From Candidatus Saccharimonadota bacterium (lineage in GTDB: Bacteria; Patescibacteriota; Saccharimonadia; Saccharimonadales; Saccharimonadaceae): 64,000 nucleotides of DNA. Each line of letters starts with the position of its first letter. Position 1 is the stretch's first letter. The notes under the pieces were generated by a model that worked only from the letters and a program-made list of their open reading frames with translations, searched no databases and was not told the origin of the DNA. Both the position numbers and the translations under genes were made by a program. This document shows positions 2,528 through 54,735 of this stretch, in pieces. The stretch covers positions 70,203-134,202 of the forward strand of contig JAFXKT010000002.1 in assembly GCA_017531585.1 (NCBI GenBank), given 5' to 3'.

Positions 2528-5500
2528 ATGAGAGGCCATTTAAGGGGTAGGAAACCCCTAAAAAAGCTGTTTGCGTTTTTGGCTACTTTTTGCATGCTTT
2601 CTGGTGCTTTGGCTTTGGTGAATCTAATTAAGACTGAAGCCGCTGGGGAATACCATATAAACATCACGTCGAATGATACTTCGATGGGTGGTTTTGGTTA
2701 TGGCGGTGACTGTACTGGCACAATGTATGCAGACTATCGTGCGCAGGCAGACTATGATTATGAAAGGCCATTTCCGAATGGTGGGAATGTAATAACTGCC
2801 TGTCCTGCTTCTGGATATTATTTTGACCACTGGCTAGTAAATGGTCAGCGAGCTGGCACGAATCCAACTCAGGCGCAATTTTATAGTTGGTACTCAGATG
2901 TTGTTTACGATTCAAATAATGAGATAAACATCGAGGCGGTATTTATTGATGCCTTCAGTGTTGTTGCGAATGTTGACGCTGGAGTGGGTGGCACTATTCA
3001 GATGGGCTGGATTAATCCTTCTGACTATACTGCAGTACCGATTAATGGTACGGCAACTAATGAAATCACTTTTTCTGTTCCTGATACTGGAAATTCTGTT
3101 ACCACAGACACGATTACCGCGACGCCGGATCAAGGATATATGTTTGCGGGCGTGACTACTTCTGGGACAAATGTTGTCTATAATAATCTAGGAAATAATC
3201 AGTTTACGCTTACTATTAGTGGCGATGGTACGGCGACGGTTCTTTTTGCGCCTATAGCCTATACGGCAACTATCAATGCTGGTACTGGTACGGCTACGGT
3301 TCCGGTTCCTACTGACGCTAACTATACTGTTACAGATAATGGTACGAGCACTGTTTCTGTAACTTCTACGAGCACTAATGTTCAGGTTCCTGTTACGATT
3401 ACGCCAGCAGGCGGATATGAAGCAAACTCGGTTACGACTAGTGGCTCTGTTAGTTATAACAACGATCTTAGCAATAATGCATTTTCGTTTACTATTACTG
3501 GCGATGGCGGCCAAGTTACTGTAAACTATGCGGCTGTTAATACTGCTGAAATATATATATCGAATGGTACTTTGAATGCCTGGGGCAATGACATTACGCT
3601 AACGAACAATCAGACGGCGCACGTTACTGCGACTGCGAGAGGTACGCAGACACTTACAGTACAACCTTCGCCAAGTGGCGGGTATAGAGTTAATGCTGCA
3701 AATCCTGTCTCGACGACTGGTAGTGTTACGTATAACAATGACTATAATGGCAGTCAATTTACTCTCTCGATCGCTGGTGACGGTACTGCAACTGTAAACC
3801 TAGAACAAATTACCTATACCGCAACAATCAATGCTGGCGCTGGTACAGCTACGGTTCCGACAAGCACAAACTATACCGTTACAAATAGCGGCACAAGTAC
3901 CGTAACGGTTACTTCGACAAGTACTAACATTTCTGTTCCTGTTTCTATTACTCCGCCAAGCGGCAACGTAGTAGATTCTGTTTCGGTTACGGGTAGTGCT
4001 GGGTATAATGGTGATCTAAATGGAAATGATTTCTCCTTTACTATTACGGGTGATGGAGGTCAGGTTTCTGTGTCTTATGCTCCAGCATATGTTGTTTCTG
4101 TTGATGCTGGCAGTGGTACATCGGCGGTTTCTGGAAATAATATTACGATTTCAGATAATAATACTGGTCTCGTCGCGATTACGGCTACGGGTAGTAAGAG
4201 CGCAAATATTACAGTAACTCCGCCATCTGGCTATAGTGTTGATTCTTCGAACCCAGTAACTGTAACTGGCGATGTTAGCTATTCGAACTACAATAATAAT
4301 TCCTTCACTATAAACATGACTGGAGCTGGTACGGTGACGGTAAACTATACTGGGCCATACAATGTTCTATTGGATGCTGGTTCTGGCACGGTTTCTGTTG
4401 CTAGTGGAACTGGGTATACTGTCGCTAATAACAACACGAGTCTAGCCACGGTTACTACGTCCGGTAATACTACTACGGGTACCATTACAGTAACTGCGCC
4501 AAGTGGCTATATGCTAAGTCCTAGCAATCCAATTACTTCGACAAATGGCACTACTACGTATAGTAATCTTAGTGGCGATACTCTAACTCTATCGATGGCT
4601 GGCGCCGATACGGTAACCTTTAACTATATTAGTGGTAGTCCATATGTCACTTCGTTCGATGTATCTCCTTCTGCAGGCGGAACTCTAAAACAAGGCTGGA
4701 GCTGTAACGGTTCTACGATCTCTAGCTTGCCATATGTTAGTACTAATACTACGGCTTCTGTTATTTATCCAAGTGATGGTGCTTTGACGGCTTGCCCAGA
4801 AAGCGGCTATGTCTTGGCCGGTTGGAGAATTAGCGGAGACAATATTACTACCTTTGATATTACATCCGGTAATAATCTAGCTTCCTTTCATCAATGGATT
4901 GGCGGCTCTAATGTCTATGATCGCATGTTCGCAAACGATACGCATAATGTTACCGTTACGGCGATGTTTGTTTCAGATCCAGCATATTCTGTAACCTTTG
5001 TTTCTGATGATTCTAGTCATGGTACGGTCAAAATCTCTTCTGGCTCGAACTATACTGCAAATCCAGACGGTACTGCGGCTGCAAGCGTGGTTGTAAGTTC
5101 TGATGGCCAAAGCGGCGACCTTAATGTTGCGCGTGTTGATGGCGTGCCTGCTTCCGGCTACTTCCTTCAGTCATTTACATCGGCAAATAACACTGAGCAG
5201 CAAACCGTTAGCTCCTGGCAGGAACTTAATAATGTTGGCAATGCCTACGGCTTCACTCTTACGGGTGCTGATACGATTACTGCGCATTTTGCTCAGTTTA
5301 CGGATATTGTTTACGAAGTTAGCGTTAATCTTCCATCGGTAGGCTCGATCGATATTCAAAATACCGACTGTAGTACAAGTACAAATCAGACCTTTACGAA
5401 GACCTTGATAGATAACGGTAGCTACTTCCAGCCGGCGCTCGATACGAACGGCCACGATCTAACCGCTTGTGTAGATAATGGTAACTACTACTTTAGTCAC

Positions 5501-7111
5501 TGGGTGATTGATGGCTGGATGAATATTTCCCAGAACGCAACTATCGATGAGGTTGGTTATTGGCCAAAGAATACTAATAATCACACTCTTCAGGCGGTCT
5601 TTGCGCCAAAGGCTACAGTTACGGTTATGCCTGACGATTCTTCGCACGGCTCAGTCTCTGTTCCGAGCGGCGCTGGCTATACGGTAACTACGAGTGGTAA
5701 TAATACTATTATCGAAACGGCTGCCGGCATGAATAAGACTACGGGAACTATAAATCTATCGCCAGCAAACGGTTACGTCTTCTCGTACTTTGAGGTTATG
5801 GACGGTAATGTAACTGTCAATCGTGGCTCTGGTAACAACGATTATACACTTACGATCGACGGTAACGACACGGTGATTGCGCACTTTGAGCCAGCAACAA
5901 ATGTAGTAGTAGATGACAATAGTCATGGCTATATTGCTTATTGGGATAGATATGCTAATCACGGGCAGGGCGCTGAAGTTCATCTAACTAACAATGAGCA
6001 ATATCTTGCTTCTTCTTCGGTCGTAAACGACGCAAGATATATTACAGGTGCAACTGGTGACTTCTGGGCAATGCCACGCAGTGGATATACCTTTGACCAC
6101 TGGGATTTGAACGGTACAACTGTTACTACGGCCGAACGCGGCGTGGTTCGCTCTGGAGATATCGAGTATCAGGCGGGTAGTAGCGGTAATCTTCCGACCC
6201 TTACTGCAAACTTCCGCGAGTATAGCCTCTATCATGTCTTTACTGGCTATAACGATGCGCATGGCTTCTTTGATCATTATCTTCCAGAGACGCAACGCAC
6301 TGGCGGCAATGGCGCACAGGCTGGTGATTATGACCTAGATGACAATCCGTTCCCTCAGGGCGCAACCGCGAAACGTTCTAGCGATACGCATGCGACTGCA
6401 CCAAACGGCTACTACTTCGCTTATTGGATTACGGGCTGCAACTCGAGCTTCATGGCAAGTGAGCAGGTCGAGACGTCTCCGGGCAATTATATAGATATGA
6501 ACGTGCTTGGAAATGAGACTATTATGACCCGCGATACATACTTCCGCCCAACGACCGAGCAGTTCAATGAATGTAGCGAATATGTTGCAGTTTGGTATCG
6601 CGTAAACCAGCAGCGCCTAATTGCAAGTTCAGAAAACGAATCAATTGGTACAGTTCAAACAAGTACCGATACTGGTTCGCCAAACCTTGGACTTTGTGGG
6701 CGTACGGCTGCCGGCACGAGTAGATTGATGCGTACAGTTGCAAACATGGGTGTCTATGATACGGCGAACGGCCTAAGTATTGATTGTTATCCAACTACGG
6801 TTATTACGAATCCGTCCTACGAAGTTGACCACTGGGAGCTAAACGGCAAAACCTTGTACGAGAATGGTAATATCGTGAGATCGGAGCAAATTCGAAAACG
6901 CGTCTATACTCAATCTGATGGCTCGGCACTGTACATTAAAGGTGATTCGTTGAACGACCTTATCGTATACTTCCGCCTCAAAGAGTTGCCACATACAGGC
7001 TCAATCGCAATCTGGTTTATTGTGGGCGGCGGCGTCGCGGCAGTCGCGGTCCCATCGGTAATACTATTAATAAGCGAACGAAAAGAACAAAAGAAAGGAG
7101 GTAAAAAATGA
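2528..7111 (+). CDS. Giant LPXTG-anchored surface protein built from InlB-B-repeat-like / Ig-like modules (candidate pilus tip adhesin)
   Basis: 1527 aa. N-terminal signal peptide (KKLFAFLATFCMLSGALALVNL). Repeated GY(Y/T/V)F(D/A/S)HW..NG motifs typical of B-repeat domains. C-terminal sorting signal LPHTG (6986-7000), then a hydrophobic stretch and ERKEQKKGGKK. Confidence 0.85.
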   Translation: MRGHLRGRKPLKKLFAFLATFCMLSGALALVNLIKTEAAGEYHINITSNDTSMGGFGYGGDCTGTMYADYRAQADYDYERPFPNGGNVITACPASGYYFDHWLVNGQRAGTNPTQAQFYSWYSDVVYDSNNEINIEAVFIDAFSVVANVDAGVGGTIQMGWINPSDYTAVPINGTATNEITFSVPDTGNSVTTDTITATPDQGYMFAGVTTSGTNVVYNNLGNNQFTLTISGDGTATVLFAPIAYTATINAGTGTATVPVPTDANYTVTDNGTSTVSVTSTSTNVQVPVTITPAGGYEANSVTTSGSVSYNNDLSNNAFSFTITGDGGQVTVNYAAVNTAEIYISNGTLNAWGNDITLTNNQTAHVTATARGTQTLTVQPSPSGGYRVNAANPVSTTGSVTYNNDYNGSQFTLSIAGDGTATVNLEQITYTATINAGAGTATVPTSTNYTVTNSGTSTVTVTSTSTNISVPVSITPPSGNVVDSVSVTGSAGYNGDLNGNDFSFTITGDGGQVSVSYAPAYVVSVDAGSGTSAVSGNNITISDNNTGLVAITATGSKSANITVTPPSGYSVDSSNPVTVTGDVSYSNYNNNSFTINMTGAGTVTVNYTGPYNVLLDAGSGTVSVASGTGYTVANNNTSLATVTTSGNTTTGTITVTAPSGYMLSPSNPITSTNGTTTYSNLSGDTLTLSMAGADTVTFNYISGSPYVTSFDVSPSAGGTLKQGWSCNGSTISSLPYVSTNTTASVIYPSDGALTACPESGYVLAGWRISGDNITTFDITSGNNLASFHQWIGGSNVYDRMFANDTHNVTVTAMFVSDPAYSVTFVSDDSSHGTVKISSGSNYTANPDGTAAASVVVSSDGQSGDLNVARVDGVPASGYFLQSFTSANNTEQQTVSSWQELNNVGNAYGFTLTGADTITAHFAQFTDIVYEVSVNLPSVGSIDIQNTDCSTSTNQTFTKTLIDNGSYFQPALDTNGHDLTACVDNGNYYFSHWVIDGWMNISQNATIDEVGYWPKNTNNHTLQAVFAPKATVTVMPDDSSHGSVSVPSGAGYTVTTSGNNTIIETAAGMNKTTGTINLSPANGYVFSYFEVMDGNVTVNRGSGNNDYTLTIDGNDTVIAHFEPATNVVVDDNSHGYIAYWDRYANHGQGAEVHLTNNEQYLASSSVVNDARYITGATGDFWAMPRSGYTFDHWDLNGTTVTTAERGVVRSGDIEYQAGSSGNLPTLTANFREYSLYHVFTGYNDAHGFFDHYLPETQRTGGNGAQAGDYDLDDNPFPQGATAKRSSDTHATAPNGYYFAYWITGCNSSFMASEQVETSPGNYIDMNVLGNETIMTRDTYFRPTTEQFNECSEYVAVWYRVNQQRLIASSENESIGTVQTSTDTGSPNLGLCGRTAAGTSRLMRTVANMGVYDTANGLSIDCYPTTVITNPSYEVDHWELNGKTLYENGNIVRSEQIRKRVYTQSDGSALYIKGDSLNDLIVYFRLKELPHTGSIAIWFIVGGGVAAVAVPSVILLISERKEQKKGGKK
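2954..4627 (+). repeat. Six tandem diverged modules of about 93 aa (about 280 nt) inside the giant LPHTG protein
   Basis: Recurring pattern xxVxxDAGxGT..V....YTV......T.VT......ITVTPPSGY.V....PV..TG.V.Y.N....FT....G.GTVTVNY. YTATINAG starts at about 3259 and about 3814, so two modules per 555 nt. Nucleotide identity is about 70% by eye. Confidence 0.75.
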
Positions 7112-7749
7112 AACGGCTGATAGCATTATTCGCTTTCCTTTCGACAATGTTGGCTAGCACGGGCTGCTATGCGGAAGCCGGCAATATTCATGGAACATAT
7201 GCCTATGACGGAGAGAATATTGACGGCGTAACGGTAGAACTTTACAAAATTGCAGATTATGACGGTGAAAGGTTTAACTTTGAACCGCCATATCTGGGTC
7301 ATGAAGTAGATATTGGATCAATGACAAATTCCGAACTCGGTGAATACGGCCAAGAATTAGCGGAGGTCGAAGCTGAGCCTACCTCTTCTCGGCAAACGAC
7401 GGATGGAAGCTATTACTTTGGCGATATAAGAGAAGGGATTTGGCTTGTAACTTTTAAAGATATAACGATTGGAGATTATACATACTCAGCTTTGCCAATC
7501 GTATTAACGATGCCGGACCTAAATAAAAGCTACCAACTCGAACTTACGGTCAAGATCGAGAAGAGCTGTCCGGACTGTGAGCCTGAGCCGGAACCGGAGC
7601 CAGTTCCGCCAGATGAAGACAACTCGAATACGAGAGATAAGATTTGGTTCTATATCAGATTATTAATAGTATTGATTATTATTGAAACGCTTACGCTTTT
7701 TGTTATAATTAAAGATAAGGAAAAGAAGGGTCAAAATGAAGAAAAATAA
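7108..7749 (+). CDS. Small Cna-B/prealbumin-like surface protein with acidic PE-linker and C-terminal TM anchor (candidate minor/basal pilin, no canonical LPXTG)
   Basis: 213 aa. ATGA start/stop overlap with the upstream gene and SD GGAGG. Signal peptide MKRLIALFAFLSTMLASTGCYA. GVTVELYKIADYDG...DGSYYFGDIREGIWLV resembles Cna-B/SpaA-fold repeats. The tail is PEPEPEPVPPDEDNSNTRD, then a TM segment and KDKEKK. Confidence 0.65.
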   Translation: MKRLIALFAFLSTMLASTGCYAEAGNIHGTYAYDGENIDGVTVELYKIADYDGERFNFEPPYLGHEVDIGSMTNSELGEYGQELAEVEAEPTSSRQTTDGSYYFGDIREGIWLVTFKDITIGDYTYSALPIVLTMPDLNKSYQLELTVKIEKSCPDCEPEPEPEPVPPDEDNSNTRDKIWFYIRLLIVLIIIETLTLFVIIKDKEKKGQNEEK

Positions 7750-9283
7750 AGTATTAGCAGCCATCGGCGCAGCTGCTGCGTCTGCGGTAATCATGGGTGG
7801 TGGCGTAAATGCGGCGCCTGTGACGATTACTACTGACGCCAACGGCGTTGTGACGAATACTGATACTATTCAGGTAAGCAATGTTACAAAATCTGGCGAT
7901 GCTTTTAAGGCTTGTAAAATCGTTGATGTAAAATATGATTCCACATCGAATGTCATTAGCTATGAGTTTACATCTGCTTTTAATGCTGTAAAGAGTAGCT
8001 TATCTTCGGAATTCCAAAGCATTACGATTGCAGACTATATGGGCAATGATTATGCTTCTGGTACAGCTTCCGGTAGTGCGGTTACTGGCAACACGAAGAT
8101 TGATAAACTTGCTGGCGAACTTGCATCTAACTCTACCTTCGTATCTAACTGTACGAACATGACTACTGGTAGCACATCGCCTTATGCTGCTACGGCTAAT
8201 GTTGCCTGGGGTGGCTACTTAATTATTCCGCAGGGTAACAGCTCTGAAATGACTGATGCTTATGGCGCGATGATTGCAAATCTTACTGCTCAGACGGATG
8301 GTAGCGGTTATAACGTAGATACAACACATGCAACCGTGAGCGCCAAAAAGAGTGCGGCTGGCTCTGTTCAGAAAACAACTAATAATACGGATGGCTCTTC
8401 TGACAATAGCTTTGCGATCAATGAGACATTCCGATATGTTGTCACGGCTGTATATCCAACCTACCCATCAAACGCTACGAATAAGAAGTTTATTGTAACG
8501 GATACTCCAGAATCTGGTATTACCCTAGATGATGTTGCTTCAATTGTGGCCGGTGGTACTGCACTTACGATAGATGGTAATAATATTAAGAACGGCGCAA
8601 ATACTGTCGGTACTATCTCGAACAGTAACGGTACAATTACCTTTACCTTTAACGACGTGAGTGCTCTTGGCGGCAATAATAACAATATCGTTATTACCTA
8701 TAATGCTCATTTGAATTCAAATGCTACACTTGGTGATGCAACTGGCGCAAATAGCGTAAACGAAAACTCTGTAACGATTAAGACTCCACAGAATCCATAT
8801 GATGTAAATTCGTCTTGGGAAACAAGTGGCCCGGTAACTACGACAGTTTATACCTATGGCATTAAAATCACGAAGATTAAAGAAAATGACTCTGCGGTTC
8901 TGCTTCCTGGTGCAGAATTTAATCTTTGCCTAGTCGCGGACACTAACTGTTCTAATCCGCTCAATGGTAATACGCCAATTACGACTAATGCGAGCGGTGA
9001 GGCTACTTATGTCTCTGTCGGCAATGGCGAGTATTATCTAAAAGAGATCAAAGCTCCAGCAGGCTATCGTCTTGCAGCAAATACTAGCGTTACGATTACT
9101 GTTAATAGCGGTGCTCAGAATCTAGATAATGGCTACTTCGAGTATACAATCGAAGATCCAGAATCAATCTTCAATCTGCCATTCACTGGTGGTCGTGGCG
9201 TAGTCGTCTATGCAATCCTCGGCGTCGGAATTGTTGGTATTGCATCCGTCTTTTACTATCGCAAGAAAAAGCAACAAGCTTAA
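7736..9283 (+). CDS. LPXTG pilin-like protein (candidate major pilin) with E-box
   Basis: 515 aa with a 14-nt overlap with the upstream gene. Signal peptide. C-terminal Cna-B-like domain with E-box YYLKEIKAPAGY (consensus YxLxExxAPxGY). Sorting signal LPFTG (9176-9190), then a hydrophobic stretch and YYRKKKQQA. Confidence 0.85.
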   Translation: MKKNKVLAAIGAAAASAVIMGGGVNAAPVTITTDANGVVTNTDTIQVSNVTKSGDAFKACKIVDVKYDSTSNVISYEFTSAFNAVKSSLSSEFQSITIADYMGNDYASGTASGSAVTGNTKIDKLAGELASNSTFVSNCTNMTTGSTSPYAATANVAWGGYLIIPQGNSSEMTDAYGAMIANLTAQTDGSGYNVDTTHATVSAKKSAAGSVQKTTNNTDGSSDNSFAINETFRYVVTAVYPTYPSNATNKKFIVTDTPESGITLDDVASIVAGGTALTIDGNNIKNGANTVGTISNSNGTITFTFNDVSALGGNNNNIVITYNAHLNSNATLGDATGANSVNENSVTIKTPQNPYDVNSSWETSGPVTTTVYTYGIKITKIKENDSAVLLPGAEFNLCLVADTNCSNPLNGNTPITTNASGEATYVSVGNGEYYLKEIKAPAGYRLAANTSVTITVNSGAQNLDNGYFEYTIEDPESIFNLPFTGGRGVVVYAILGVGIVGIASVFYYRKKKQQA

Positions 9284-9296
9284 TCAATAATCAAGA

Positions 9297-9321
9297 GTCG
9301 CGGCTACGGTCGCGGCTTTTT
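9297..9321 (+). terminator. Intrinsic terminator after the pilin gene (first of two)
   Basis: GTCGCG/CGCGGC 6-bp GC-rich stem with an 8-nt loop, followed by TTTTT. Confidence 0.55.
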
Positions 9322-9356
9322 GTTGGGCGATATAATATTAGCATTCGAGAGAAAAA

Positions 9357-9377
9357 GCGCACTATGTGCGCATTTTT
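9357..9377 (+). terminator. Second hairpin/terminator between pilin and sortase genes
   Basis: GCGCAC-TAT-GTGCGC hairpin followed by ATTTTT. Confidence 0.5.
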
Positions 9378-9403
9378 CAGAGAATGCGCCATATTAGACC
9401 GAA

Positions 9404-9412
9404 TGGTATAAT
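9404..9412 (+). promoter_or_regulatory. Extended -10 promoter (TGGTATAAT) of the sortase gene
   Basis: TGgTATAAT ends at 9412. The ATG at 9413 abuts it. The second in-frame ATG (9419) lies exactly 6 nt downstream, which is the leaderless geometry. Confidence 0.55.
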
Positions 9413-10249
9413 ATGCTTATGAAAAGATTGGCGTCTATCAAAAACCGTTTGACGACGATTATTTTTGTCGTGTCGGTCACGATCGGTATTTTACTAATAG
9501 TCGCACCCTTGGTTGTTGGCGCAATTAATCAGTCTCGCGCGAATGGCGTAATTCAGTCTTATCAGAATAATGTAGGTCAGACCGAGAATAGAAATGATGA
9601 GCAATTTGCGCTTGCAGATAAGTATAACCAGGCGATTTCTGGGGGCATTGGGGATAGCGAAATATTAAAACAATATAACGACATTCTAAATGTCGAAAAT
9701 GGTGTGATGGGGTATATTGAGATCCCTCGTATTGGTATTCGCAATCCTATATATCACACGGTTGAAGAAGATGCCTTACAAAAAGGTATTGGCCACATGC
9801 AAAATACTTCGTTTCCGGTTGGTGGTTCTGGCACACATGCCGCCCTGTCTGGGCATCGTGGCCTCCCGATGAGTAAGTTATTTACGGATCTTGATCAGGT
9901 TAAGGAAGGGGATATTATCCTAATTAAAATCCTCAATCGTACGCTTGCATACAAAGTCTATAAAATAGAAGTGGTCGAGCCGACGCACGAAGGAGGTTTG
10001 GCGGTTGTTCCGGATAAAGATTTGCTGACTCTTGTCACTTGTACGCCTTATGCGATTAATTCCCATCGGTTGCTGGTCCATGCGGAACGTACGGAATATG
10101 TCGAGGAAATGGCAGAGATTAAGACCGAATTTACGATTTCCGAATCCCAACGAATTCTCTTGATTGCACTCGGTGTTGTTGCTATGATCTTAGCTCTAGA
10201 TATTGTCGTAATTCTAAAACGTCGCAAACGCGAACGCGCGGCGGATTAA
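9413..10249 (+). CDS. srtC: Class C (pilin-polymerising) sortase
   Basis: TLVTCTPYAINSHRLLVHAER catalytic TLxTC motif and HAALSGHRG His region. It has both an N-terminal TM and a C-terminal TM followed by KRRKRER, the class C hallmark. The true start is probably ATG 9419 (MKRLASIK...). Confidence 0.85.
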   Translation: MLMKRLASIKNRLTTIIFVVSVTIGILLIVAPLVVGAINQSRANGVIQSYQNNVGQTENRNDEQFALADKYNQAISGGIGDSEILKQYNDILNVENGVMGYIEIPRIGIRNPIYHTVEEDALQKGIGHMQNTSFPVGGSGTHAALSGHRGLPMSKLFTDLDQVKEGDIILIKILNRTLAYKVYKIEVVEPTHEGGLAVVPDKDLLTLVTCTPYAINSHRLLVHAERTEYVEEMAEIKTEFTISESQRILLIALGVVAMILALDIVVILKRRKRERAAD

Positions 10250-24316: not shown

Positions 24317-24820
24317 TCATGCATGGTCAACCAGATAACTAAGGCCGGTTTTCTGTACCTTGCCGAAATTAGTCTTGATCATCTTCGTGATGGTGTAGGC
24401 CATATCAGGGTCGGCTTTTATGAACCGCTTGTTTGTTATGCGAAGGTAGCAATATTCGCGGTCGCTTCGGCGCATTTTGAGGTCGCCGATTTTGAGCAGC
24501 TCTACGCGTTCATCGCTGCCTATTTCGAGCTCGATTTCGGGCGCACGGGATCCTGGACAAATAATGATGTGATATGGATCGCTGCGGTCAACCTTGTCGT
24601 TCTCGAAGTTGCGCAAATCAACGACTACTGGAAACAGCATGCCAATTATTCTATCGATACAGTGCCAGATGGAATAGACGCACATCGATATTGCGACTGC
24701 AACGAAGATAGTCTTGCCGTTATTCTCGGCTCCTTTGTGGATGTAGTAAGCGGTGAGTATAGCGCCAAGCAAGGCGCAAATACGTTGCCGATTCTTCTTG
24801 AACTTTTCTCTACTAAGCAT
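24317..24820 (-). CDS. Hypothetical membrane protein
   Basis: 167 aa with two N-terminal TM segments. SD AAGGAGG 10 nt upstream and a correctly oriented terminator downstream. Preferred over the overlapping plus-strand ORF 24323-24847. Confidence 0.55.
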   Translation of the reverse strand: MLSREKFKKNRQRICALLGAILTAYYIHKGAENNGKTIFVAVAISMCVYSIWHCIDRIIGMLFPVVVDLRNFENDKVDRSDPYHIIICPGSRAPEIELEIGSDERVELLKIGDLKMRRSDREYCYLRITNKRFIKADPDMAYTITKMIKTNFGKVQKTGLSYLVDHA

Positions 24821-24932
24821 GAGAAATATCCCTCCTTAAAGATCTAGCGGATTTCCGTACTTGTTAATTATAGCATAAATTCAATGAAAAGTCAATCAAA
24901 CTGCTTAAGCTTGCTCTTAAAAACGCCTCAGG

Positions 24933-26309: not shown

Positions 26310-26320
26310 CCATAAACTCG

Positions 26321-26350
26321 TTGACACTAAACCATTAGCGCTTTTATAAT
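26321..26350 (+). promoter_or_regulatory. Near-consensus sigma-70-type promoter of the 1928-aa surface protein gene
   Basis: TTGACA (26321-26326), 18-nt spacer, TATAAT (26345-26350). Confidence 0.65.
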
Positions 26351-26388
26351 AGAATGTGAATAGCATTTTGAGAGAGTGCTGAGATAAA

Positions 26389-29300
26389 GTGAGAGATAAT
26401 ATAAAAAAGTTTTTGGGATTATTTTTATGTACTGTTCTCGCTTTGGGTGGATTTTCGAACGTTTTTGCTTCGTCTAATGTTTTGCATATAAGCTCGGTTG
26501 AGATTACGAGTAAAAGTGCAGGTGTGGAAGCGGAGACTCCAAGCATCGAAAATGACCATGTCCAAGGCGACGTTGTTTTTAATGCTCAGGGTGATCATAT
26601 TGAATACCTCTTTGCGATTGAAAACACGGACGATTATGCGTATAGAATCGACAGCATAACAGATAACAACTCGACAGAAAAGCTGGCGATCACTTATTCG
26701 CACGGCGAAAAAATCGAGGCCAAGAGCACGGTTAGCTTTACGATGCTCATGGAGTATTCTGAGCAGCTCGTGAACCAGGAAAAACTGGATCTTAGTGACC
26801 TGCAAATCAAGATCCGCTTCACGCGCATTGGCGGCTCTGAAGACGAAGAAAAAGAAGAAGACATTGATGTAAACCCAGATACTGAGTCTTCAAGCGTTAC
26901 GAACGTTGTGGCTAATGGCGCACTTGCGTCTTCGGCCGTTATTTTGGTTATCGTCTTCGCTCTTCACGGCACGCTACCAAAGCAGCTCAGGTATGCTGGT
27001 ATTGGTACTGCTTTGCTTCTTGCTGGTAGCGCGATTAGCCTAAACATTGCAAGCGCAGCGCAGAGCGAAGAGATTGATGTTTGGTTCTCGAATATTGAAC
27101 TAGTCGGCATCTTTGAAAACTATACGGTTACTATTGATACTGGTAATGGCCCAGTCGAGCATCATTACGATTATGGCACGCCACTTTCAGAAATTCTTAG
27201 CCGCCCAAGCAAGACTGGCTACCACTTCGACAAGTGGGTCGACGGCGATGGCAACACTATCGATGAAAACGGTACGATTACTGGCCCAATCGATATTGTG
27301 GCTGTCATGGAGGCTAATAAATATCATGTGGTCTTTGATGCGAACGGCGGAACCGGTTCGATGGACAGTCAAGAGTTTACTTATGATGAGGCCGCAAAGA
27401 AACTAAGCAAGAATACCTTTGAGCGCCCTGGATATAACTTTGCTGGCTGGGCAACTACTGCTATTGGCCGCGCAAAAGCTTATGATGACGAGGAAGAGGT
27501 TCGGAACCTAGTCGATACAACTGAAGATGTAAATCTTTATGCAACGTGGACTAAACTTACGGATATTGCTTACACCGTTAAGCATCGTTATGCGGATCTA
27601 ACGGGTGGCTATGATGAAGTTGAAAGAGAAGAGGCTGGTCCAGTTGACGAGGATGTTTATCCGCCAGTTCTAGAACGCGATGGCTTCAATGATCCAGCAA
27701 CAATCGCGCCGATTCGTATTAATCCTGATGGTAGTACGGTTGTTGTCCTTGAGTATTCTCGCAAGAGCTATGCTTTCGCATATGGCGATTCTGAATATAT
27801 TGATACGAACGAATCGACGAGTGCTGGAGATTATGCATTTGAAACGCCAATTACAGCAAAAGCCAAGAATCGCGACGGCTACCAGTTTACCGGTTGGTCT
27901 GATGGCTCAAATATTGTATCGACTAATAATCCATATACTTTCGATTTGCCGCTTGATGGCATCACACTAACTCCTACTTATGAAGCTAATACTTATCATG
28001 TCGCCTTCCACGCTAACGGTGGTACTGGCGATATGGCCAAGCAAGAGTTTACTTTTGACGATGAATCGAAGGCGCTAAGCAAGAATCTCTTTGAACGCCC
28101 TGGATATAGCTTTGCTGGCTGGGCAACGAGCGCTGACGACGAGGTTGTCTATGCGGACAAAGCAGAGGTTAGAAATCTAACGGATGGCACCGAAGATGTC
28201 GATCTATATGCAAAGTGGACAGCGAATACTTATAGTGTTGTATTTCACGCCAATGAAGGTACCGGTTCAATGGATGACCAGACATTTGCGTACGACGAGG
28301 CTCCAAAGGCACTAGCTAAGAATACTTTCGAGCGTGTTGGTTATAGCTTTGCTGGCTGGGCAAAGACTGCCGCAGGTGAAGTTGAGTATACGGACGAACA
28401 GGAGGTTCAGAATCTAATTCAAACTGCTGGAACTGTTGATCTTTACGCAAAGTGGACTGCAAATACTTACTACGCACACTTCCATGCGAATGGTGGTGAC
28501 GGCTCGATGGATGATCAATCATTTACTTATGGCGAAGCTGCTAAGGCTTTGGCCGCCAACACCTTTACTCGTGCTGGCTACAGCTTTGCTGGTTGGGCAA
28601 CGACAGCTGGTGGCGAGGTTGAATATGCAGATGGTGCTTCGGTTCAGAACTTAACCAGCGATATTGATCTTTATGCTAAATGGACAGCTAATACTTATCG
28701 TGTTATCTTCCATTCTAATGACGGCAATGATTCGACGGAAAGCCAGGAATTTGTATTTGATGAGGCTGCAAAGGCGCTCAGGGCTAATAGTTTCTCTCGC
28801 GAGGGTTACAGCTTCGCTGGTTGGGCGGAGAGCGCTAGCGGTGAAGTAGTTTATACCGACGAAGCTCAGGTTCAGAATCTAACCACAACTACAAACGATG
28901 TAGATCTTTACGCAAAGTGGACTGCAAATACTTATTATGTAACTTTCCATGCCAATAACGGCGCTGGTTCGATGGAAAATCAGCCATTTACCTACGGCGA
29001 AGCTGCTAAGGCTTTGATGGCCAATGCCTTTACTTGTACTGGTTACAGCTTCGCTGGCTGGGCAGAGAGTGATAGCGGTGAAGTAGTTTATGCCGACGAA
29101 GCTCAGGTTCAGAACCTAACTAGCGATATTGATCTTTACGCCAAATGGGTAGCAAATACATATACGGTTGTCTTCCATTCCAATGAAGGCTCAGGTCTAA
29201 CTGAAAGCCAAGAATTTACTTACGATGAAGGCCCAAAGGCTCTAAGAAAGAATACCTTTACTTATGCTGGTTATAGCTTCGCTGGCTGGGCGGAGAGCGC

Positions 29301-32175
29301 TAGTGGTCAAGTCGTCTATGATGATGAAGAAGAAATCGAGAATCTTGTAGAGACTACCGAAGATGTAAATCTCTATGCAAAATGGGAAGCACGAACGGAT
29401 ATTCCTTATCTCGTTATTCATCACTACGAAAAGCTGATAGAGGGCTACGACGATGTAGAAGATCCTCGCGAAGATGGTAGGGTAGACCAAGATGTTCAGC
29501 TCCCAATACAGCACGTTGATGGCTTTGTGGATCCTGCTATTCGCACGGTTCCGATTGCTGCTGATGGCACAACAGTCGAACATTATTACTATCTCCGTGA
29601 ACGAGTAGGCTTTACGCTAAATGATCCAGATAACCATGTAACAACCGAAACTGGTACTGGTGAATATAAGTATGGCGCAACTATTTCCTTGGTTGCCGAG
29701 GATGTTCCGGGCTACGGCTTTACGGGCTGGTCCGACGGCCAAAGTATCGTCTCGACTAATGCAAGCTACAGCTTTGAAATTACTACGGACGTTACCTTGA
29801 CGCCATCCTATGTGGCAAACACCTACAATGTAATCTTTAACGCTAACGGCGGTATTGGTTCGATGGATGCTCAGGCATTTACGTATGATGCACAAGCTAC
29901 GGCTCTAACTGCAAATACCTTCACGCGCGCAGGCTATATCTTTGCCGGTTGGGCGACAAATCCAAATGGTGAGATTGTCTATAGAGATGAGCAGCAGGTT
30001 CAAAACCTAACTACGACTACTGACGACTTTAATCTTTATGCTAAGTGGGCTTTGCGTACGGATATTAAATATACAGTTCATCACCGCTACGAAAATGTTG
30101 GGTCTGGCTTTACTGAAGTTAATACGACAGAGTATGGCTCGGTGGATACAGATATTACTCCTCCAACTGCGCCAGAAGCTGGCTTCGGTGATCCTGTTGC
30201 GGATGCCTCTACTCCAGTGCCTACCCACATTTCGGCTAACGGAACTTCGGAGGTAATCTATAACTACTATCGCCTCTATAAGAACCTTACGATAGTTGAT
30301 GGTGCGGATGTATCGGGAGCTACGTCGGGCAGTTATAAATACGGTACGCAATTTGAGCTAACTGCTGCTAATCGTCAAGGATACGAGTTTGCCGGCTGGA
30401 CTATAGATGGCGGCGAAAGTATTATTTCTACAAACAAAACCTACGGCTTCGTATTGACGGACAACGTTACGATTCAACCTGTATATGACGAGGCGCAGTT
30501 CTATGACGTCTTTAGGCATGACGGTGCTTGTGTGTTTGACGGTAATGGCAATGTGACCGGTGATGACTGTGGCGATAATCCTGGCTATATCAATACGAAC
30601 GTTAAGCTCTATGATGCGGCGAACTATGAAGGCGACTACGAAATTGGTTTTACGATTGATGCTCTCGGCAGTACTCAAGTCAATCAGGCGACCATTGTAA
30701 ACTCGAAGCTCGAGAGTAACTCTGCTAACTATCCTGGTGTTGCGGCAAGAAAGGTTAGTAATGGAAACGATATCGAGATTACGCAGAGGATAAATGGTGG
30801 AAATCCTGGCGGAAGCCCTACGAACAAAACTGCATGGGCTGCTCCTAAGACAATCAAGATTATTCGCTATAAGAATGTTGTTTATACTCAGGTAGGCAAT
30901 GAAACGCCAAAGAGGCTTCAGTCAATGGCTGGGACGAGCAATTATCATGACATTCCGGTTTGGTTTGGTGCGACTTATGTTCCTCCGAGCGGAGGCAATG
31001 AGGGGTATGCGGATCGTCTCTTTAACGGAACCCTCTCTCATATGTATATTAAACAGGGTGAATATGACGGCGCAACGGTAACAATGACCTTTGACATGAA
31101 CGGCGATACTGGTACCGCGCCTGATCCTATTTCGGTGCTGAGCGGCACGGCGATTGCTACTCTACCCGATGAAGTAGATAGTGGTAGTGATCAGGTCTTC
31201 ATGGGTTGGTATAGGGATAAGGACATCTGGCTTGATCGTGTAACTAAGAATGATGCCTTGACGCAAGACGTTACGGTCTATGCGCGCTGGGCTAGCTCGG
31301 CAGATGTCTGTTTGGTTAAAGATGTGGTTGGGCAAAATGATGAGATTAGCGATGTAACAAAAACCAAGCTTAAAGATTGTGTTGATATCATTAATAATAA
31401 TGCGGACATGCCTTCTGGTGAGATTGTAATTCTACACGACATTAATCCGGCGACGGAAGCTGGAGGAAATAACGATATACGTATTAGTTCTGGTAAAGAC
31501 ATTACTATAACCGGTGACGGATACAGACTAACAGCAAACTCGTCTCAGCCAATCTTTAGAAACGATAGAGGTGGTACCTTGCGGCTTGACAATATAAAAA
31601 TGAATACTAAGGCAGGTCAAGCTATAGTTAATAATGAGGCTTATAACGGAATAAGTTCTAACCTTTATGTAAATAGCTGCGAGTTTAACGTCGGAGACAA
31701 TAGCTCGAAGGGTACTGTCAAGCAGGCAATCTATAACGTGGGTAGCGCCGTGGAGATTACAGGCAATACCGTGATTGAGAGTTATTCAACTATAAGGGCG
31801 GCCATAACTAGCGATGGCGGTTCAGTGCACATTAAAAGCGCGACAGTTACTGCGCATAATATATCGACTATAGTTGTTTCGAATAATGCTTCTATAACTA
31901 TCGGTGTCGATGACGGCACGGTTAGGAACGATAGTCCGATCATAATTTCAGATAAGAACTATGCGGTTTCTGGTAGAGTAGGAATAAACTTCTATGATGG
32001 AACGCTGATTGCTAAAGGTAGCAATAGTAACCATTCACCTCTCGATAATGGGTCTACTACGACTGCGACTGTTGCGGATTATCCTGCTGGTACTGTCCCG
32101 ATGACGACCCCATGGACAACGGATTACGACAATACCTACTACTGGCTGTATTATGGCACCAGTAGTGGGCCGTAA
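26389..32175 (+). CDS. Giant secreted/surface protein with Listeria-Bacteroides (Flg_new) repeats, MucBP-like modules, a LamG/ConA-like lectin region and a C-terminal beta-helix-like region
   Basis: 1928 aa with a GTG start. Signal peptide MRDNIKKFLGLFLCTVLALGGFSNVFA. Nine copies of Y.V.F.ANGG.GSM..Q.F.Y......L..N.F.R.GY.FAGWA.......Y.D...V.NL.....DLYAKW. Three TDI.Y.V.H.Y modules. FNGTLSHMYIKQG lectin-like segment. The C-terminal ITITGDGYRLTAN.../NNEAYNG... region has beta-helix character. There is no C-terminal LPXTG. Confidence 0.85.
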   Translation: MRDNIKKFLGLFLCTVLALGGFSNVFASSNVLHISSVEITSKSAGVEAETPSIENDHVQGDVVFNAQGDHIEYLFAIENTDDYAYRIDSITDNNSTEKLAITYSHGEKIEAKSTVSFTMLMEYSEQLVNQEKLDLSDLQIKIRFTRIGGSEDEEKEEDIDVNPDTESSSVTNVVANGALASSAVILVIVFALHGTLPKQLRYAGIGTALLLAGSAISLNIASAAQSEEIDVWFSNIELVGIFENYTVTIDTGNGPVEHHYDYGTPLSEILSRPSKTGYHFDKWVDGDGNTIDENGTITGPIDIVAVMEANKYHVVFDANGGTGSMDSQEFTYDEAAKKLSKNTFERPGYNFAGWATTAIGRAKAYDDEEEVRNLVDTTEDVNLYATWTKLTDIAYTVKHRYADLTGGYDEVEREEAGPVDEDVYPPVLERDGFNDPATIAPIRINPDGSTVVVLEYSRKSYAFAYGDSEYIDTNESTSAGDYAFETPITAKAKNRDGYQFTGWSDGSNIVSTNNPYTFDLPLDGITLTPTYEANTYHVAFHANGGTGDMAKQEFTFDDESKALSKNLFERPGYSFAGWATSADDEVVYADKAEVRNLTDGTEDVDLYAKWTANTYSVVFHANEGTGSMDDQTFAYDEAPKALAKNTFERVGYSFAGWAKTAAGEVEYTDEQEVQNLIQTAGTVDLYAKWTANTYYAHFHANGGDGSMDDQSFTYGEAAKALAANTFTRAGYSFAGWATTAGGEVEYADGASVQNLTSDIDLYAKWTANTYRVIFHSNDGNDSTESQEFVFDEAAKALRANSFSREGYSFAGWAESASGEVVYTDEAQVQNLTTTTNDVDLYAKWTANTYYVTFHANNGAGSMENQPFTYGEAAKALMANAFTCTGYSFAGWAESDSGEVVYADEAQVQNLTSDIDLYAKWVANTYTVVFHSNEGSGLTESQEFTYDEGPKALRKNTFTYAGYSFAGWAESASGQVVYDDEEEIENLVETTEDVNLYAKWEARTDIPYLVIHHYEKLIEGYDDVEDPREDGRVDQDVQLPIQHVDGFVDPAIRTVPIAADGTTVEHYYYLRERVGFTLNDPDNHVTTETGTGEYKYGATISLVAEDVPGYGFTGWSDGQSIVSTNASYSFEITTDVTLTPSYVANTYNVIFNANGGIGSMDAQAFTYDAQATALTANTFTRAGYIFAGWATNPNGEIVYRDEQQVQNLTTTTDDFNLYAKWALRTDIKYTVHHRYENVGSGFTEVNTTEYGSVDTDITPPTAPEAGFGDPVADASTPVPTHISANGTSEVIYNYYRLYKNLTIVDGADVSGATSGSYKYGTQFELTAANRQGYEFAGWTIDGGESIISTNKTYGFVLTDNVTIQPVYDEAQFYDVFRHDGACVFDGNGNVTGDDCGDNPGYINTNVKLYDAANYEGDYEIGFTIDALGSTQVNQATIVNSKLESNSANYPGVAARKVSNGNDIEITQRINGGNPGGSPTNKTAWAAPKTIKIIRYKNVVYTQVGNETPKRLQSMAGTSNYHDIPVWFGATYVPPSGGNEGYADRLFNGTLSHMYIKQGEYDGATVTMTFDMNGDTGTAPDPISVLSGTAIATLPDEVDSGSDQVFMGWYRDKDIWLDRVTKNDALTQDVTVYARWASSADVCLVKDVVGQNDEISDVTKTKLKDCVDIINNNADMPSGEIVILHDINPATEAGGNNDIRISSGKDITITGDGYRLTANSSQPIFRNDRGGTLRLDNIKMNTKAGQAIVNNEAYNGISSNLYVNSCEFNVGDNSSKGTVKQAIYNVGSAVEITGNTVIESYSTIRAAITSDGGSVHIKSATVTAHNISTIVVSNNASITIGVDDGTVRNDSPIIISDKNYAVSGRVGINFYDGTLIAKGSNSNHSPLDNGSTTTATVADYPAGTVPMTTPWTTDYDNTYYWLYYGTSSGP
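27988..29395 (+). repeat. Six consecutive Flg_new (Listeria-Bacteroides) repeats of 228-237 nt
   Basis: Repeat starts (AATACnTAT...) at about 27988, 28225, 28462, 28690, 28926 and 29154. Isolated extra copies at about 27304, 29815 and 31078. Sub-blocks reach about 91% nucleotide identity (28804-28884 vs 29041-29121, 7 mismatches in 81). Confidence 0.85.
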
Positions 32176-32193
32176 GGTCCGAGAGTATAACCC

Positions 32194-32222
32194 TTGCAAC
32201 TCTTCTCAAACTGTGGTAGAAT
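32194..32222 (+). promoter_or_regulatory. Near-consensus promoter of rpsO
   Basis: TTGCAA (32194-32199), 17-nt spacer, TGgTAGAAT (32214-32222). The ATG at 32233 is only 10 nt downstream with no SD. The TTG start in the ORF track is the -35 box itself. Confidence 0.65.
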
Positions 32223-32232
32223 TAGTTGTAAT

Positions 32233-32499
32233 ATGATTACTAAAGATAACAAAGCTAAGGCAATTGCGAAGCTTGCTCGCAGCGACAAAGATGTTGGCTC
32301 CCCTGAAGTACAGGTTTCAGTTCTAACTGAACGTATCAAGGAAGTCACTGAGCATGTCAAGGCTAACAAGCATGATTACATGGCAAAGCGCGGCCTAATT
32401 CAGATGGTTGGTAAGCGCAAAAAGTTGCTAAAGCACCTAGAACAGAGCGACTTCGAGAGCTACAAAGCAACTGTCGCAAAGCTTGGTCTTCGCAAATAA
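32233..32499 (+). CDS. rpsO: 30S ribosomal protein S15
   Basis: MITKDNKAKAIAKLARSDKDVGSPEVQVSVLTERIKEVTEHVKANKHDYMAKRGL..MVGKRKKLLKHL, 88 aa, canonical S15. Confidence 0.9.
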   Translation: MITKDNKAKAIAKLARSDKDVGSPEVQVSVLTERIKEVTEHVKANKHDYMAKRGLIQMVGKRKKLLKHLEQSDFESYKATVAKLGLRK

Positions 32500-32504
32500 C
32501 AAAA

Positions 32505-32532
32505 AATTACGTCTTCAAGGCGTAATTTTTTT
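32505..32532 (+). terminator. Intrinsic terminator of rpsO
   Basis: AATTACG...CGTAATT hairpin followed by TTTTTTA. Confidence 0.75.
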
Positions 32533-32551
32533 ATCTCAAAATTAAAACCAT

Positions 32552-32582
32552 AAAAAATCCCGGTCACTCTGCGGTGGCCGGG
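32552..32582 (-). terminator. Intrinsic terminator of the minus-strand 189-aa gene
   Basis: Minus strand CCCGGCCAC-CGCAGA-GTGACCGGG followed by ATTTTTTAT. Confidence 0.75.
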
Positions 32583-32591
32583 CGTGGCAAT

Positions 32592-33161
32592 TTACGAAGT
32601 TGCTAATGCTTCACTGAGCAGCATAGAGATCTCGTCCATCTTTCTTGCCGGTGTAAAACTACGTATGTCTGCCTGTTCGTAGTTCTCGACGAAAAGCTGG
32701 ATGATCTTCTTGTAGCAGTAGGAAAAAGCTCTCTCTCCGTCACCTTTCTCGATAGCACGTGAATCTGTACCGAGGAAAACATAAACCTGTCCGTCCTCTT
32801 TGCGCTTCAGGATAGAAAGGCAACAAGCTTTGTTGACTGCTTTCTTGATGGCCATGAAATGCTCCTCGATGAAGTCATCGATGCTGCCGTTGAAGCCGGG
32901 CATGTAGAGCTGGGCCATGGTGGGCTTATCTTCGGGGCTGAGGGTGTAGGTGAAGGGAAGAATGGTTGCTGTGACAATGTTCTTGCTTTTGATCTCAGCG
33001 ATCGAGATGCTGAAACCGTCATGCTTGATTTTGTCCCAAGCTGCCTGAATCTCTTCTGGGGTCTTTGCTCTGAAGATGAGCTTGCTTCTGCTCACGGAAA
33101 CAGTGGTTGTCTCGCGGTTCTTTTTGGAGGAACCTGACTCTGTGGTATCCATATTTGCCAT
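32592..33161 (-). CDS. Hypothetical protein inserted antisense between rpsO and pnp
   Basis: The ORF track gives 223 aa from 33263. I prefer ATG 33161 (MANMDTTESG..., 189 aa), preceded by SD AAAGGGG. No family recognised. Confidence 0.55.
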   Translation of the reverse strand: MANMDTTESGSSKKNRETTTVSVSRSKLIFRAKTPEEIQAAWDKIKHDGFSISIAEIKSKNIVTATILPFTYTLSPEDKPTMAQLYMPGFNGSIDDFIEEHFMAIKKAVNKACCLSILKRKEDGQVYVFLGTDSRAIEKGDGERAFSYCYKKIIQLFVENYEQADIRSFTPARKMDEISMLLSEALATS

Positions 33162-33343
33162 TGTAGATACCCCTTTCTTTATAAAGTACAACTTTCTCAT
33201 CTCTCCAATCGGAAACAAAAAAGAAGTCCAATAATATTTTAACATAATAATAGTAAAAGTCAAAGCAGTTATATCATCCTAGCTAATCTATGCGTTTGAG
33301 AGGACAATTAAAGTAGCTACAACTTCCGAACGAAGCGCCACCG

Positions 33344-53907: not shown

Positions 53908-54735
53908 TTAATATCTTGGCGCGCGCTTGATAAGTTTTGCGTGTAGAACCATGCGTTCTGTATCGCTATAGCAAGTAGAAAGCGTAAGAATATGATCGCT
54001 GCTGCTTACGGTAGTTTGGAAATCGTGCGAGCTACGAGCCTTAAGCATGTTTACAAAGTTTTGGAAATCTGTATCGTTTGCAAACGAAGTGCGGATATAG
54101 TCCGAAGTGGTTGGTAGATGGTAAGTACTAAAGACCTGCCACATAGACGTCTGCTTGTCGGTGACAGTGCGAACGATGTAATTATCGGAATTGTTTAGCC
54201 AACCATTCGTCTCTGCCGTGCGAAGCGTTCCAAACATTGTGCCGTCATAGCGACCATGCGCATAGATAATAGTATTTCTGTCGGTATTATCTAGTCTTAA
54301 TCTATAATCTGCGAATACCCAACCAGCACTGTTATAGCTTTTGTCTAGCGAATGAGTTAGATAATATTCGTTATCGCTGGTCTGCATGAAAGGATAATTA
54401 ATATTCGTGCCGCCAACTTTGATCCAACCGACAACATCTGGGTTGGTCTTGCGTAGCTCGTTCAAATCTACATCGAGAAGGCTCATGTTTAAGAACTTCC
54501 AATAAGGCGATTCTGGTGCGTCGTCCGACTCTATGACCTCGGTGTTTTCGTCGTCTTCGACCTCGGTGACATTGGCTGCTTCGGTAGCTTCTTGAGCTAC
54601 GACCTTTGTGTTCATGGAATCGATTAGCCAAGTAATAATCTTGTATCCAGAATAAAGCACGCCGCCAGCGCAGACGAGGGCAATAACACAGCAGATTCCC
54701 AACTTGACGCGAAACTTCGCCTTTTTTATTCTCAT
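53908..54735 (-). CDS. srtB: Class B sortase
   Basis: NPDVVGWIKVGGTNINYPFMQ, NTIIYAHGR, QVFSTY...DYIRTSF, ILTLSTC. Collinear by eye with S. aureus SrtB (DIVGWIKLSGTSLNYPVLQ...IMTLSTC). N-terminal TM. Confidence 0.85.
   Translation of the reverse strand: MRIKKAKFRVKLGICCVIALVCAGGVLYSGYKIITWLIDSMNTKVVAQEATEAANVTEVEDDENTEVIESDDAPESPYWKFLNMSLLDVDLNELRKTNPDVVGWIKVGGTNINYPFMQTSDNEYYLTHSLDKSYNSAGWVFADYRLRLDNTDRNTIIYAHGRYDGTMFGTLRTAETNGWLNNSDNYIVRTVTDKQTSMWQVFSTYHLPTTSDYIRTSFANDTDFQNFVNMLKARSSHDFQTTVSSSDHILTLSTCYSDTERMVLHAKLIKRAPRY

Follow-up and report, generated by a model that had tools for sequence, protein, structure and literature searches.

A conserved sorting signal-like cassette with a second signal peptide-like segment near the N-terminus of giant InlB B-repeat proteins

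Sortases attach proteins by their C-termini. To our knowledge, the sole described exception is provided by the streptococcal Zmp proteases with their N-terminal LPXTG, for which the mechanism is poorly understood. Here we describe a comparable arrangement at the start of a giant surface protein of 1928 amino acids (aa), encoded in a stretch of 64,000 nucleotides from a Candidatus Saccharimonadota bacterium (GenBank assembly GCA_017531585.1, contig JAFXKT010000002.1, positions 70,203 to 134,202 of the forward strand), hereafter the window. Near its N-terminus this protein carries an internal cassette in which a sorting signal-like segment with an NPxT motif runs directly into a second, signal peptide-like helix. 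We propose, with moderate confidence, that the cassette is a conserved N-terminal anchoring and processing module that would undergo dual cleavage, by signal peptidase and by a class B sortase.

In the streptococcal IgA1 protease and in ZmpB, ZmpC and ZmpD, the signal peptide precedes an LPXTG that is atypically N-terminal, two hydrophobic segments and another presumed signal-peptidase site (PMC3518915), and the mature IgA1 protease begins 56 residues downstream of LPXTG (PMC9637739). A first-pass annotation of the same DNA had known of no described precedent for dual processing of one polypeptide; these proteins supply one. The giant protein shares its order of N-terminal elements with the streptococcal and Gemella M26 Zmp proteins (ZmpA-D), which are likewise surface proteins, of about 2000 aa, without a C-terminal anchor. 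The predicted distance from the motif to the mature N-terminus is 58 aa in the giant protein (Thr165-Ala223), with a median of 50 aa in its family. Conversely, the family motif, NPxTGD, belongs to the class B type, whereas that of the Zmp proteins is the LPXTG of SrtA, and a folded immunoglobulin (Ig)-like domain of about 120 aa lies upstream of the motif, in a position where the IgA1 protease has a much shorter segment. The passenger is an InlB B-repeat stalk instead of the G5 and M26 protease domains of Zmp; Pfam finds only Flg_new and Flg_new_2 domains in the giant protein, and no M26 metalloprotease or G5 domain. The hosts differ as well, being uncultured gut Firmicutes and Saccharibacteria. 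By analogy, then, the family is likened to the Zmp anchors in the order of its elements and is not itself a Zmp member.

The motif invites a second comparison, with class B sortase substrates such as IsdC (NPQTN/NPKTG), CD0386 (PPKTG) and Lmo2186 (NPKSS). SrtB of B. anthracis requires NPKTG together with an Asp at P2', the SrtB substrates of C. difficile and Listeria read PPKTGDS and NPKSSDS, and N or S is tolerated at P1' in known substrates (NPQTN, NPKSS) (PMC11987632). The giant protein has in common with these substrates the N-P-x-T core and a hydrophobic helix with a basic tail after it, and a sortase of the cognate type is encoded in the window; the family also has the acidic P2' residue seen in DNPKTGDE, PPKTGDS and NPKSSDS (PMC11987632). 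It differs from them in that its signal is internal, with about 1700 residues after it, in that the window copy has lost the G and the D, and in the absence of any heme or NEAT-domain context. Finally, the PF09479/PF18998 repeat stalk is that of canonical LPXTG fibrillar adhesins and InlB B-repeat proteins, with the polarity reversed: here the anchor module lies at the N-terminus, and the domains outside the repeats, presumably adhesive ones, lie at the C-terminus.

The N-terminal cassette and its conservation

The elements that the first-pass annotation had recognised in the giant protein, namely the acidic linker SEDEEKEEDID, the pentapeptide NPDTE, a hydrophobic helix, the basic patch HGTLPKQLR and a second helix ending before AQSEE, all lie where it had placed them (Table 1). 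It was also right that neither a stop codon nor an in-frame ATG separates the two halves of the cassette, with zero stops and zero Met in aa 150-228, and that the protein lacks a C-terminal LPXTG, the sequence ending in ...YYGTSSGP with no other C-terminal anchor. In-frame GTG or TTG codons occur at V174, L186 and L210, with no sign that translation begins at any of them; an independent internal translation start at the cassette was ruled out, as no Met is conserved in the loop in an alignment of 31 sequences. The N-terminal 228 aa match no significant family in Pfam or NCBIfam. The repeats downstream exceed the Pfam gathering score, with 357.8 bits for PF09479 (11 repeats) and 107.7 bits for PF18998 (3 repeats), and in all 1705 residues lie C-terminal of the cassette. 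The last 500 aa or so, which have no Pfam match, are presumed to form the distal tip.

Across the motif the window protein reads DIDVNPDTESSS, where the equivalent family consensus is IINPKTGDSI, so that the N-P-x-T core is present as NPDTE (aa 162-166). The second transmembrane (TM) helix, TM2, has the composition of a signal peptide (SP2): KQLR as basic n-region, then YAGIGTALLLAGSAI as h-region, then SLNIASA/A with small residues at -3 and -1. This segment starts at aa 202, away from the N-terminus of the precursor, where the conventional signal peptide (SP1) is found.

The extent of conservation was established by an exhaustive HMMER search with aa 1-239, in which all counts are of representative clusters. 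Matches comprised 492 clusters at E<=1e-3, 79 of them at E<=1e-10, and nearly all are N-terminal in their proteins, which are 500-3800 aa long. Of the best 150 matches, 113 satisfied a strict regular expression covering the full cassette; many of the remainder are truncated or carry a slightly different form of the cassette. The common layout consists of a signal peptide, an Ig-like domain of about 120 aa, (I/V)(I/V)(I/V)-N-P-x-T-G-D, a TM helix, a K/R-rich loop, an SP2-like helix and a giant passenger. InlB B-repeats are present in the passenger of every member whose domains were viewed, and on four Firmicutes contigs the Flg_new repeats occur with or without Y_phosphatase3, DUF285 or DUF6273.

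Among the 31 aligned relatives (21-51% identity), P163 and T165 never vary, conservation reaches at least 90% for N162, D167 and the SP2 Ala at -1, and SP1 and SP2 each have an Ala at -1 that is invariant or nearly so. The 113 strict cassettes have N in 99, P in 113, T in 109, G in 68 and D in 97 at the respective motif positions. Medians over 114 cassettes are 21 aa from motif to loop, 8 aa for the loop, which has 5 K/R and about 0.1 D/E, and 19 aa for the second uncharged stretch. In SP2, Pro occurs at -6 in 61/94 and Ala at -1 in 78/94; residue -3 is V/A/I/T/S/L, which is not independent evidence because the site rule allowed only A/V/I/L/S/T/G/C there. A chance motif was ruled out as an explanation by the invariant and near-invariant residues, the 113/150 strict cassettes and the recovery of the protein on 18 contigs. 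The first-pass annotation had entertained a recent gene fusion, a lost stop codon or an assembly error. On the contrary, the sequences indicate that the cassette is an old, selected architecture rather than a recent fusion, because the layout is conserved in relatives only 21-51% identical, and the occurrence of an identical 1928-aa protein on 18 contigs, each from a separate assembly, excludes an assembly or sequencing error.

Curated sorting-signal models recognise part of the family. The N-termini of two relatives score 18.6 and 16.9 bits against TIGR01167 (cut-off 15.9), and the matches among 81 cassette segments of relatives were to TIGR01167 (24), NF033846, the NPXTG anchor (12), LPXTG_double (10), the IsdC model (6) and srtB_target, TIGR03063 (4). 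When set against the published substrate requirements, the NPxTGD of the family agrees with the signature of class B sortases, down to the P2' Asp that B. anthracis SrtB requires. Among solved structures, the window's class B sortase is closest to the SrtB enzymes of B. anthracis, S. aureus, Listeria and C. difficile, of the NPKTG/NPQTN type, and the pilus-polymerising class B sortases are not among these nearest relatives. It is the candidate enzyme for the NPxT motif.

Predicted fold of the N-terminal region

AlphaFold2 (AF2) modelling of aa 1-239 with the 31-sequence alignment gave a mean predicted local distance difference test score (pLDDT) of 81.5 and a predicted template modelling score of 0.66. 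In the model, aa 30-148 fold as a beta-sandwich (pLDDT ~95), NPDTE lies in a disordered linker (aa 151-169), and two antiparallel helices follow at aa 169-192 and 198-224. Foldseek comparison of the N-terminal domain (N-domain) with the PDB returned only generic Ig-like sandwiches (MSP, the adaptin ear/GAE, a FixG-related protein, the VesB Ig domain and HYDIN), and weak Pfam/NCBIfam matches in the N-domain of relatives were to DUF7619, DUF7507 and TIGR01451, of the DUF11/CARDB type.

A short segment immediately after SP2 behaves differently in the two models that we produced. In the model of aa 1-239, with the N-domain present, aa 226-238 form a beta-strand with a pLDDT of 92. When the N-domain was left out (aa 166-330), both helices were kept and the first B-repeat folded from aa 244 (pLDDT ~95), and aa 227-243 became coil (pLDDT ~59-74) despite adjoining that repeat. 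The strand is thus ordered only with the N-domain present, which by elimination suggests the N-domain as its pairing partner. Covariation, calculated as mutual information with average product correction over 110 sequences, points the same way: 1.5% of pairs between strand columns and the N-domain lie above the global 99th percentile, compared with 0.24% of pairs with the B-repeat, a difference of about six times, although this support is weak because subfamily structure confounds it. It is possible, and we offer this only tentatively, that aa 226-238 are the final strand of the N-terminal Ig-like domain and that the TM hairpin interrupts its last loop as an excisable insertion. The class B sortase would then tie the body of this domain to peptidoglycan through Thr165, signal peptidase would release the N-terminus of the passenger, and strand complementation would keep the two chains together, so that the wall-linked domain holds the passenger.

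Processing of the giant protein

From the anatomy of the cassette, its conservation, the sortase gene and the predicted hairpin we infer a topology, two cleavages and a wall linkage, as follows. SP1 would initiate export through Sec, with translocation of the Ig-like N-domain (aa 28-149). Next, NPxT(G)(D) together with TM1 and the basic loop would serve as a sorting signal of the class B sortase type and as a stop-transfer sequence, the loop remaining cytoplasmic, after which TM2 would restart translocation so that the passenger of about 1700 aa also ends outside. Signal peptidase I would cleave after ...ASA (aa 223), the window class B sortase would cleave after Thr165 and join the N-domain to peptidoglycan, and the TM hairpin of about 58 aa would be discarded.

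Several observations weigh against this scheme. In the window copy of the cassette the motif, NPDTES, lacks both the consensus G at P1' and the acidic D at P2'; the hydrophobic segment and positive tail are present, and the tail HGTLPKQLR is weak, with two K/R against the family median of five; and SP2 has no Pro at -6. No curated sorting-signal model matched the window cassette at E<=0.1 in a whole-protein scan or at E<=0.01 in a segment scan. Relative to L003, the closest homologue among the loci compared here, all five residue changes in aa 150-176 fall straight after NPDT, at P1'-P6', and these positions are therefore unconstrained here. More generally, the internal site of the cassette conflicts with the C-terminal location that defines sorting signals, and no sortase gene was found within 10 kb of four family members on Firmicutes contigs. 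Moreover, both cuts together would leave the passenger without a covalent link to the cell, so that its retention needs a further mechanism. The first-pass reading of a SrtB-like sorting signal followed by a signal peptide holds for the elements themselves, and is strengthened by the family NPxTGD and the class B sortase in the window, but it had overlooked that the window copy is degenerate. The sortase step is the least certain part of the proposal because the motif has degenerated to NPDTES, and for the window protein we regard sortase processing as plausible, with clearly less certainty than in members that carry the family consensus.

The same observations could be explained if signal peptidase alone acts on the window protein, with the NPxT motif vestigial, TM1 holding the N-domain as a membrane stub, and SP2 cleaved so that the passenger is either held non-covalently by that stub or released. 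The loss of the G and of the P2' Asp, the free variation of P1'-P6' among close relatives and the failure to match a curated sorting-signal model are all in keeping with this, as is the retention of a canonical ASA/A site in a TM1-loop-TM2 segment that is 98% identical to that of L003. However, the window protein and its nearest relatives (NPDTES, NPDTAT in L003, NPNTAT, NPNTND and SPNTSD) preserve an N-P-x-T core in every relative of the lineage, as NPDT, NPNT or SPNT, while the linker around it is completely rewritten, and N or S at P1' is tolerated by known SrtB substrates (PMC11987632). A class B sortase in the window with no other candidate substrate there also speaks against a vestigial motif. 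We consider cleavage by signal peptidase alone unlikely, at a level that still deserves attention.

Alternatively, the hairpin could be permanent, with no proteolysis at all and the two helices tethering both ectodomains to the membrane. This would be the simplest account of how the passenger is retained in a protein with no other anchor, and it agrees with the antiparallel helices of the AF2 model and with a short basic loop that follows the positive-inside rule. It would leave unexplained, however, why a near-invariant N-P-x-T-G-D is maintained outside TM1 and why TM2 has the traits of a signal peptide (short h-region, Pro at -6, Ala at -1), and the analogous IgA1 protease does mature 56 residues past its motif (PMC9637739). 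A permanent hairpin seems to us unlikely, slightly more so than cleavage by signal peptidase alone. The remaining idea is that a small sortase substrate became joined to a secreted adhesin by recent fusion, loss of a stop codon, frameshift or misassembly. Only the appearance of the sequence speaks for it; some database entries are split here, P0114 for example being followed by an overlapping gene of 1677 aa, but sequencing frameshifts appear to account for these. The idea is so improbable that it can be set aside, given the identical open reading frame (ORF) on 18 contigs, the layout kept across two phyla in relatives 21-51% identical, and the failure to find a convincing N-domain protein that stands alone and has a true C-terminal signal.

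The last point also bears on the first-pass description of the ORF as an in-frame fusion of a sortase substrate of roughly 200 aa with an adhesin of roughly 1700 aa. No convincing stand-alone version of that substrate was found among the family matches, the short ones looking truncated or frameshifted. One member, at L084 7906-13954, is called as overlapping genes of 357 aa and 1677 aa with the break shortly after the cassette. These gene splits are probably assembly or sequencing frameshifts, and they could mislead searches for "two-gene" versions. Dual cleavage of a single polypeptide by signal peptidase and a class B sortase remains the reading that we prefer.

Genomic setting, distribution and implications

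Coordinates of the giant gene, its parts and the sortase-related genes of the window are collected in Table 1.

Table 1. Features of the giant gene and sortase-related genes, in window positions
Feature	Position	Strand	Details and basis
Whole gene, surface protein	26389..32175	+	1928 aa; GTG start; 11 Flg_new + 3 Flg_new_2 (InlB B-repeat) domains
N-terminal signal peptide SP1, aa 1-27, ...SNVFA/SSN	26389..26469	+	A27 at -1 invariant in family; AF2 helix 2-21
N-terminal Ig-like beta-sandwich, aa 28-149, DUF11/CARDB/HYDIN-VesB type	26470..26835	+	AF2 pLDDT ~95; generic Ig-like PDB matches
Acidic disordered linker, aa 150-161; SEDEEKEEDID = aa 150-160 (26836-26868)	26836..26871	+	AF2 pLDDT <50 over aa 151-169
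NPDTE, aa 162-166, degenerate form of family NPxTGD, class B sortase type	26872..26886	+	Alignment and cassette pattern
TM helix 1 (TM1), AF2 helix aa 169-192	26893..26964	+	Predicted stop-transfer part of sorting signal
Hydrophobic core of TM1, GALASSAVILVIVFAL, aa 177-192	26917-26964	+	Sequence
Short loop HGTLPKQLR, aa 193-201, predicted cytoplasmic	26965..26991	+	Sequence
TM helix 2 (TM2), signal peptide-like SP2, YAGIGTALLLAGSAISLNIASA, aa 202-223, ends IASA/AQSEE	26992..27057	+	Sequence, family pattern, AF2
Conserved beta-strand right after SP2, aa 226-238, EIDVWFSNIELVG	27064..27102	+	Predicted pairing with N-terminal Ig-like domain
Passenger: B-repeat stalk, then ~500 aa C-terminus without Pfam match	27118..32172	+	First B-repeat fold begins at aa 244
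Class B sortase, TLSTC catalytic motif	53908..54735	-	TIGR03064, 168.3 bits (cut-off 153.75)
Class C sortase in pilus cluster	9413-10249	+	Second sortase of window
Tip-like protein, 1527 aa, ends in LPHTG	2528-7111	+	Pilus cluster
SpaH/EbpB-type major pilin, LPFTG	7736-9283	+	Pilus cluster

The giant gene is located between radA and rpsO-pnp (window 26310-32590). The window radA matches metagenome-assembled genomes (MAGs) of Candidatus Nanosyncoccaceae/Saccharibacteria with up to 99% identity, many of them from the gut of ruminants or other animals. The radA-rpsO slot is strain-variable; in most of 34 relatives read, out of 80 fetched, it is empty or holds unrelated genes. Homologues of the giant gene occupy it at 3/80 loci. 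L003 shares 92% identity with the window protein over the N-terminal 240 aa, the identity of L028 is about 24%, and L021 fell under the tblastn threshold and was detected by the family profile only. Synteny had been suggested in the first-pass annotation as a check on the arrangement, and it bears the arrangement out: L021 and L028 keep the same order of signal peptide, domain of about 130 aa, motif (NPKTND / PNTGD), TM helix, basic loop (RRGKNKAK or KRNKKHAK) and second helix (ending VFA/D or VHA/A), and L028 runs on into B-repeat-like sequence. No C-terminal NPxT signals were found in a scan of the 80 Saccharibacteria radA loci. Unrelated large genes in the slot downstream of radA encode proteins of 1339 aa (L012) and 1640 aa (L014).

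A word-indexed protein search with aa 1-239 gave no matches, and one with the 31-sequence profile gave four. The sole name obtained from 20 cluster look-ups was "InlB B-repeat-containing protein [Bacilli bacterium]" (NCBI), and the few members that could be placed are on one "Bacilli bacterium" MAG and on one contig with sporulation genes; the hosts of the family are uncultured gut Firmicutes and some Saccharibacteria. On the Bacilli MAG contig (L083 10001-19888) two adjacent paralogues, of 2370 aa and 896 aa, both carry the N-terminal module, and the family therefore grows by tandem duplication. A literature search returned no paper on this module family and none on sortases in Saccharibacteria.

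The window also contains a sortase-dependent pilus cluster in a Saccharibacterium (2528-10249, plus strand), with two LPxTG pilins that are the only other sortase substrates seen in the window. Within it, a 213-aa protein (7108-7749, plus strand) has a signal peptide and a C-terminal ...NSNTRD followed by a TM helix and KDKEKK; there is no Pro in this motif and no Pfam or NCBIfam match. One possibility is a minor or basal pilin whose sorting motif is non-canonical. Elsewhere, ORFs without a family match comprise overlapping ones of 167 and 174 aa on both strands of the clpP-radA interval (24317-24847) and one of 223 aa in the rpsO-pnp interval (32592-33263, minus strand).

The present results suggest that an N-terminal sortase-anchor logic is widespread, occurring in hundreds of protein clusters with a class B signature and a folded partner domain. 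The combination of an internal sorting signal with an internal signal peptide is invisible to standard annotation, which names such proteins just "InlB B-repeat-containing protein". The module provides a concrete, testable model for the N-terminal wall anchoring of giant adhesins. If the split-domain arrangement proved true, sortase, which normally fixes only C-termini, could thereby hold giant adhesins on the wall through their N-termini, and the anchors of Zmp and IgA1 proteases, which are poorly understood, might find an explanation as well. Saccharibacteria are generally described as epibionts attached to host bacteria, and the giant proteins of these organisms that bear the module are candidates for host attachment.

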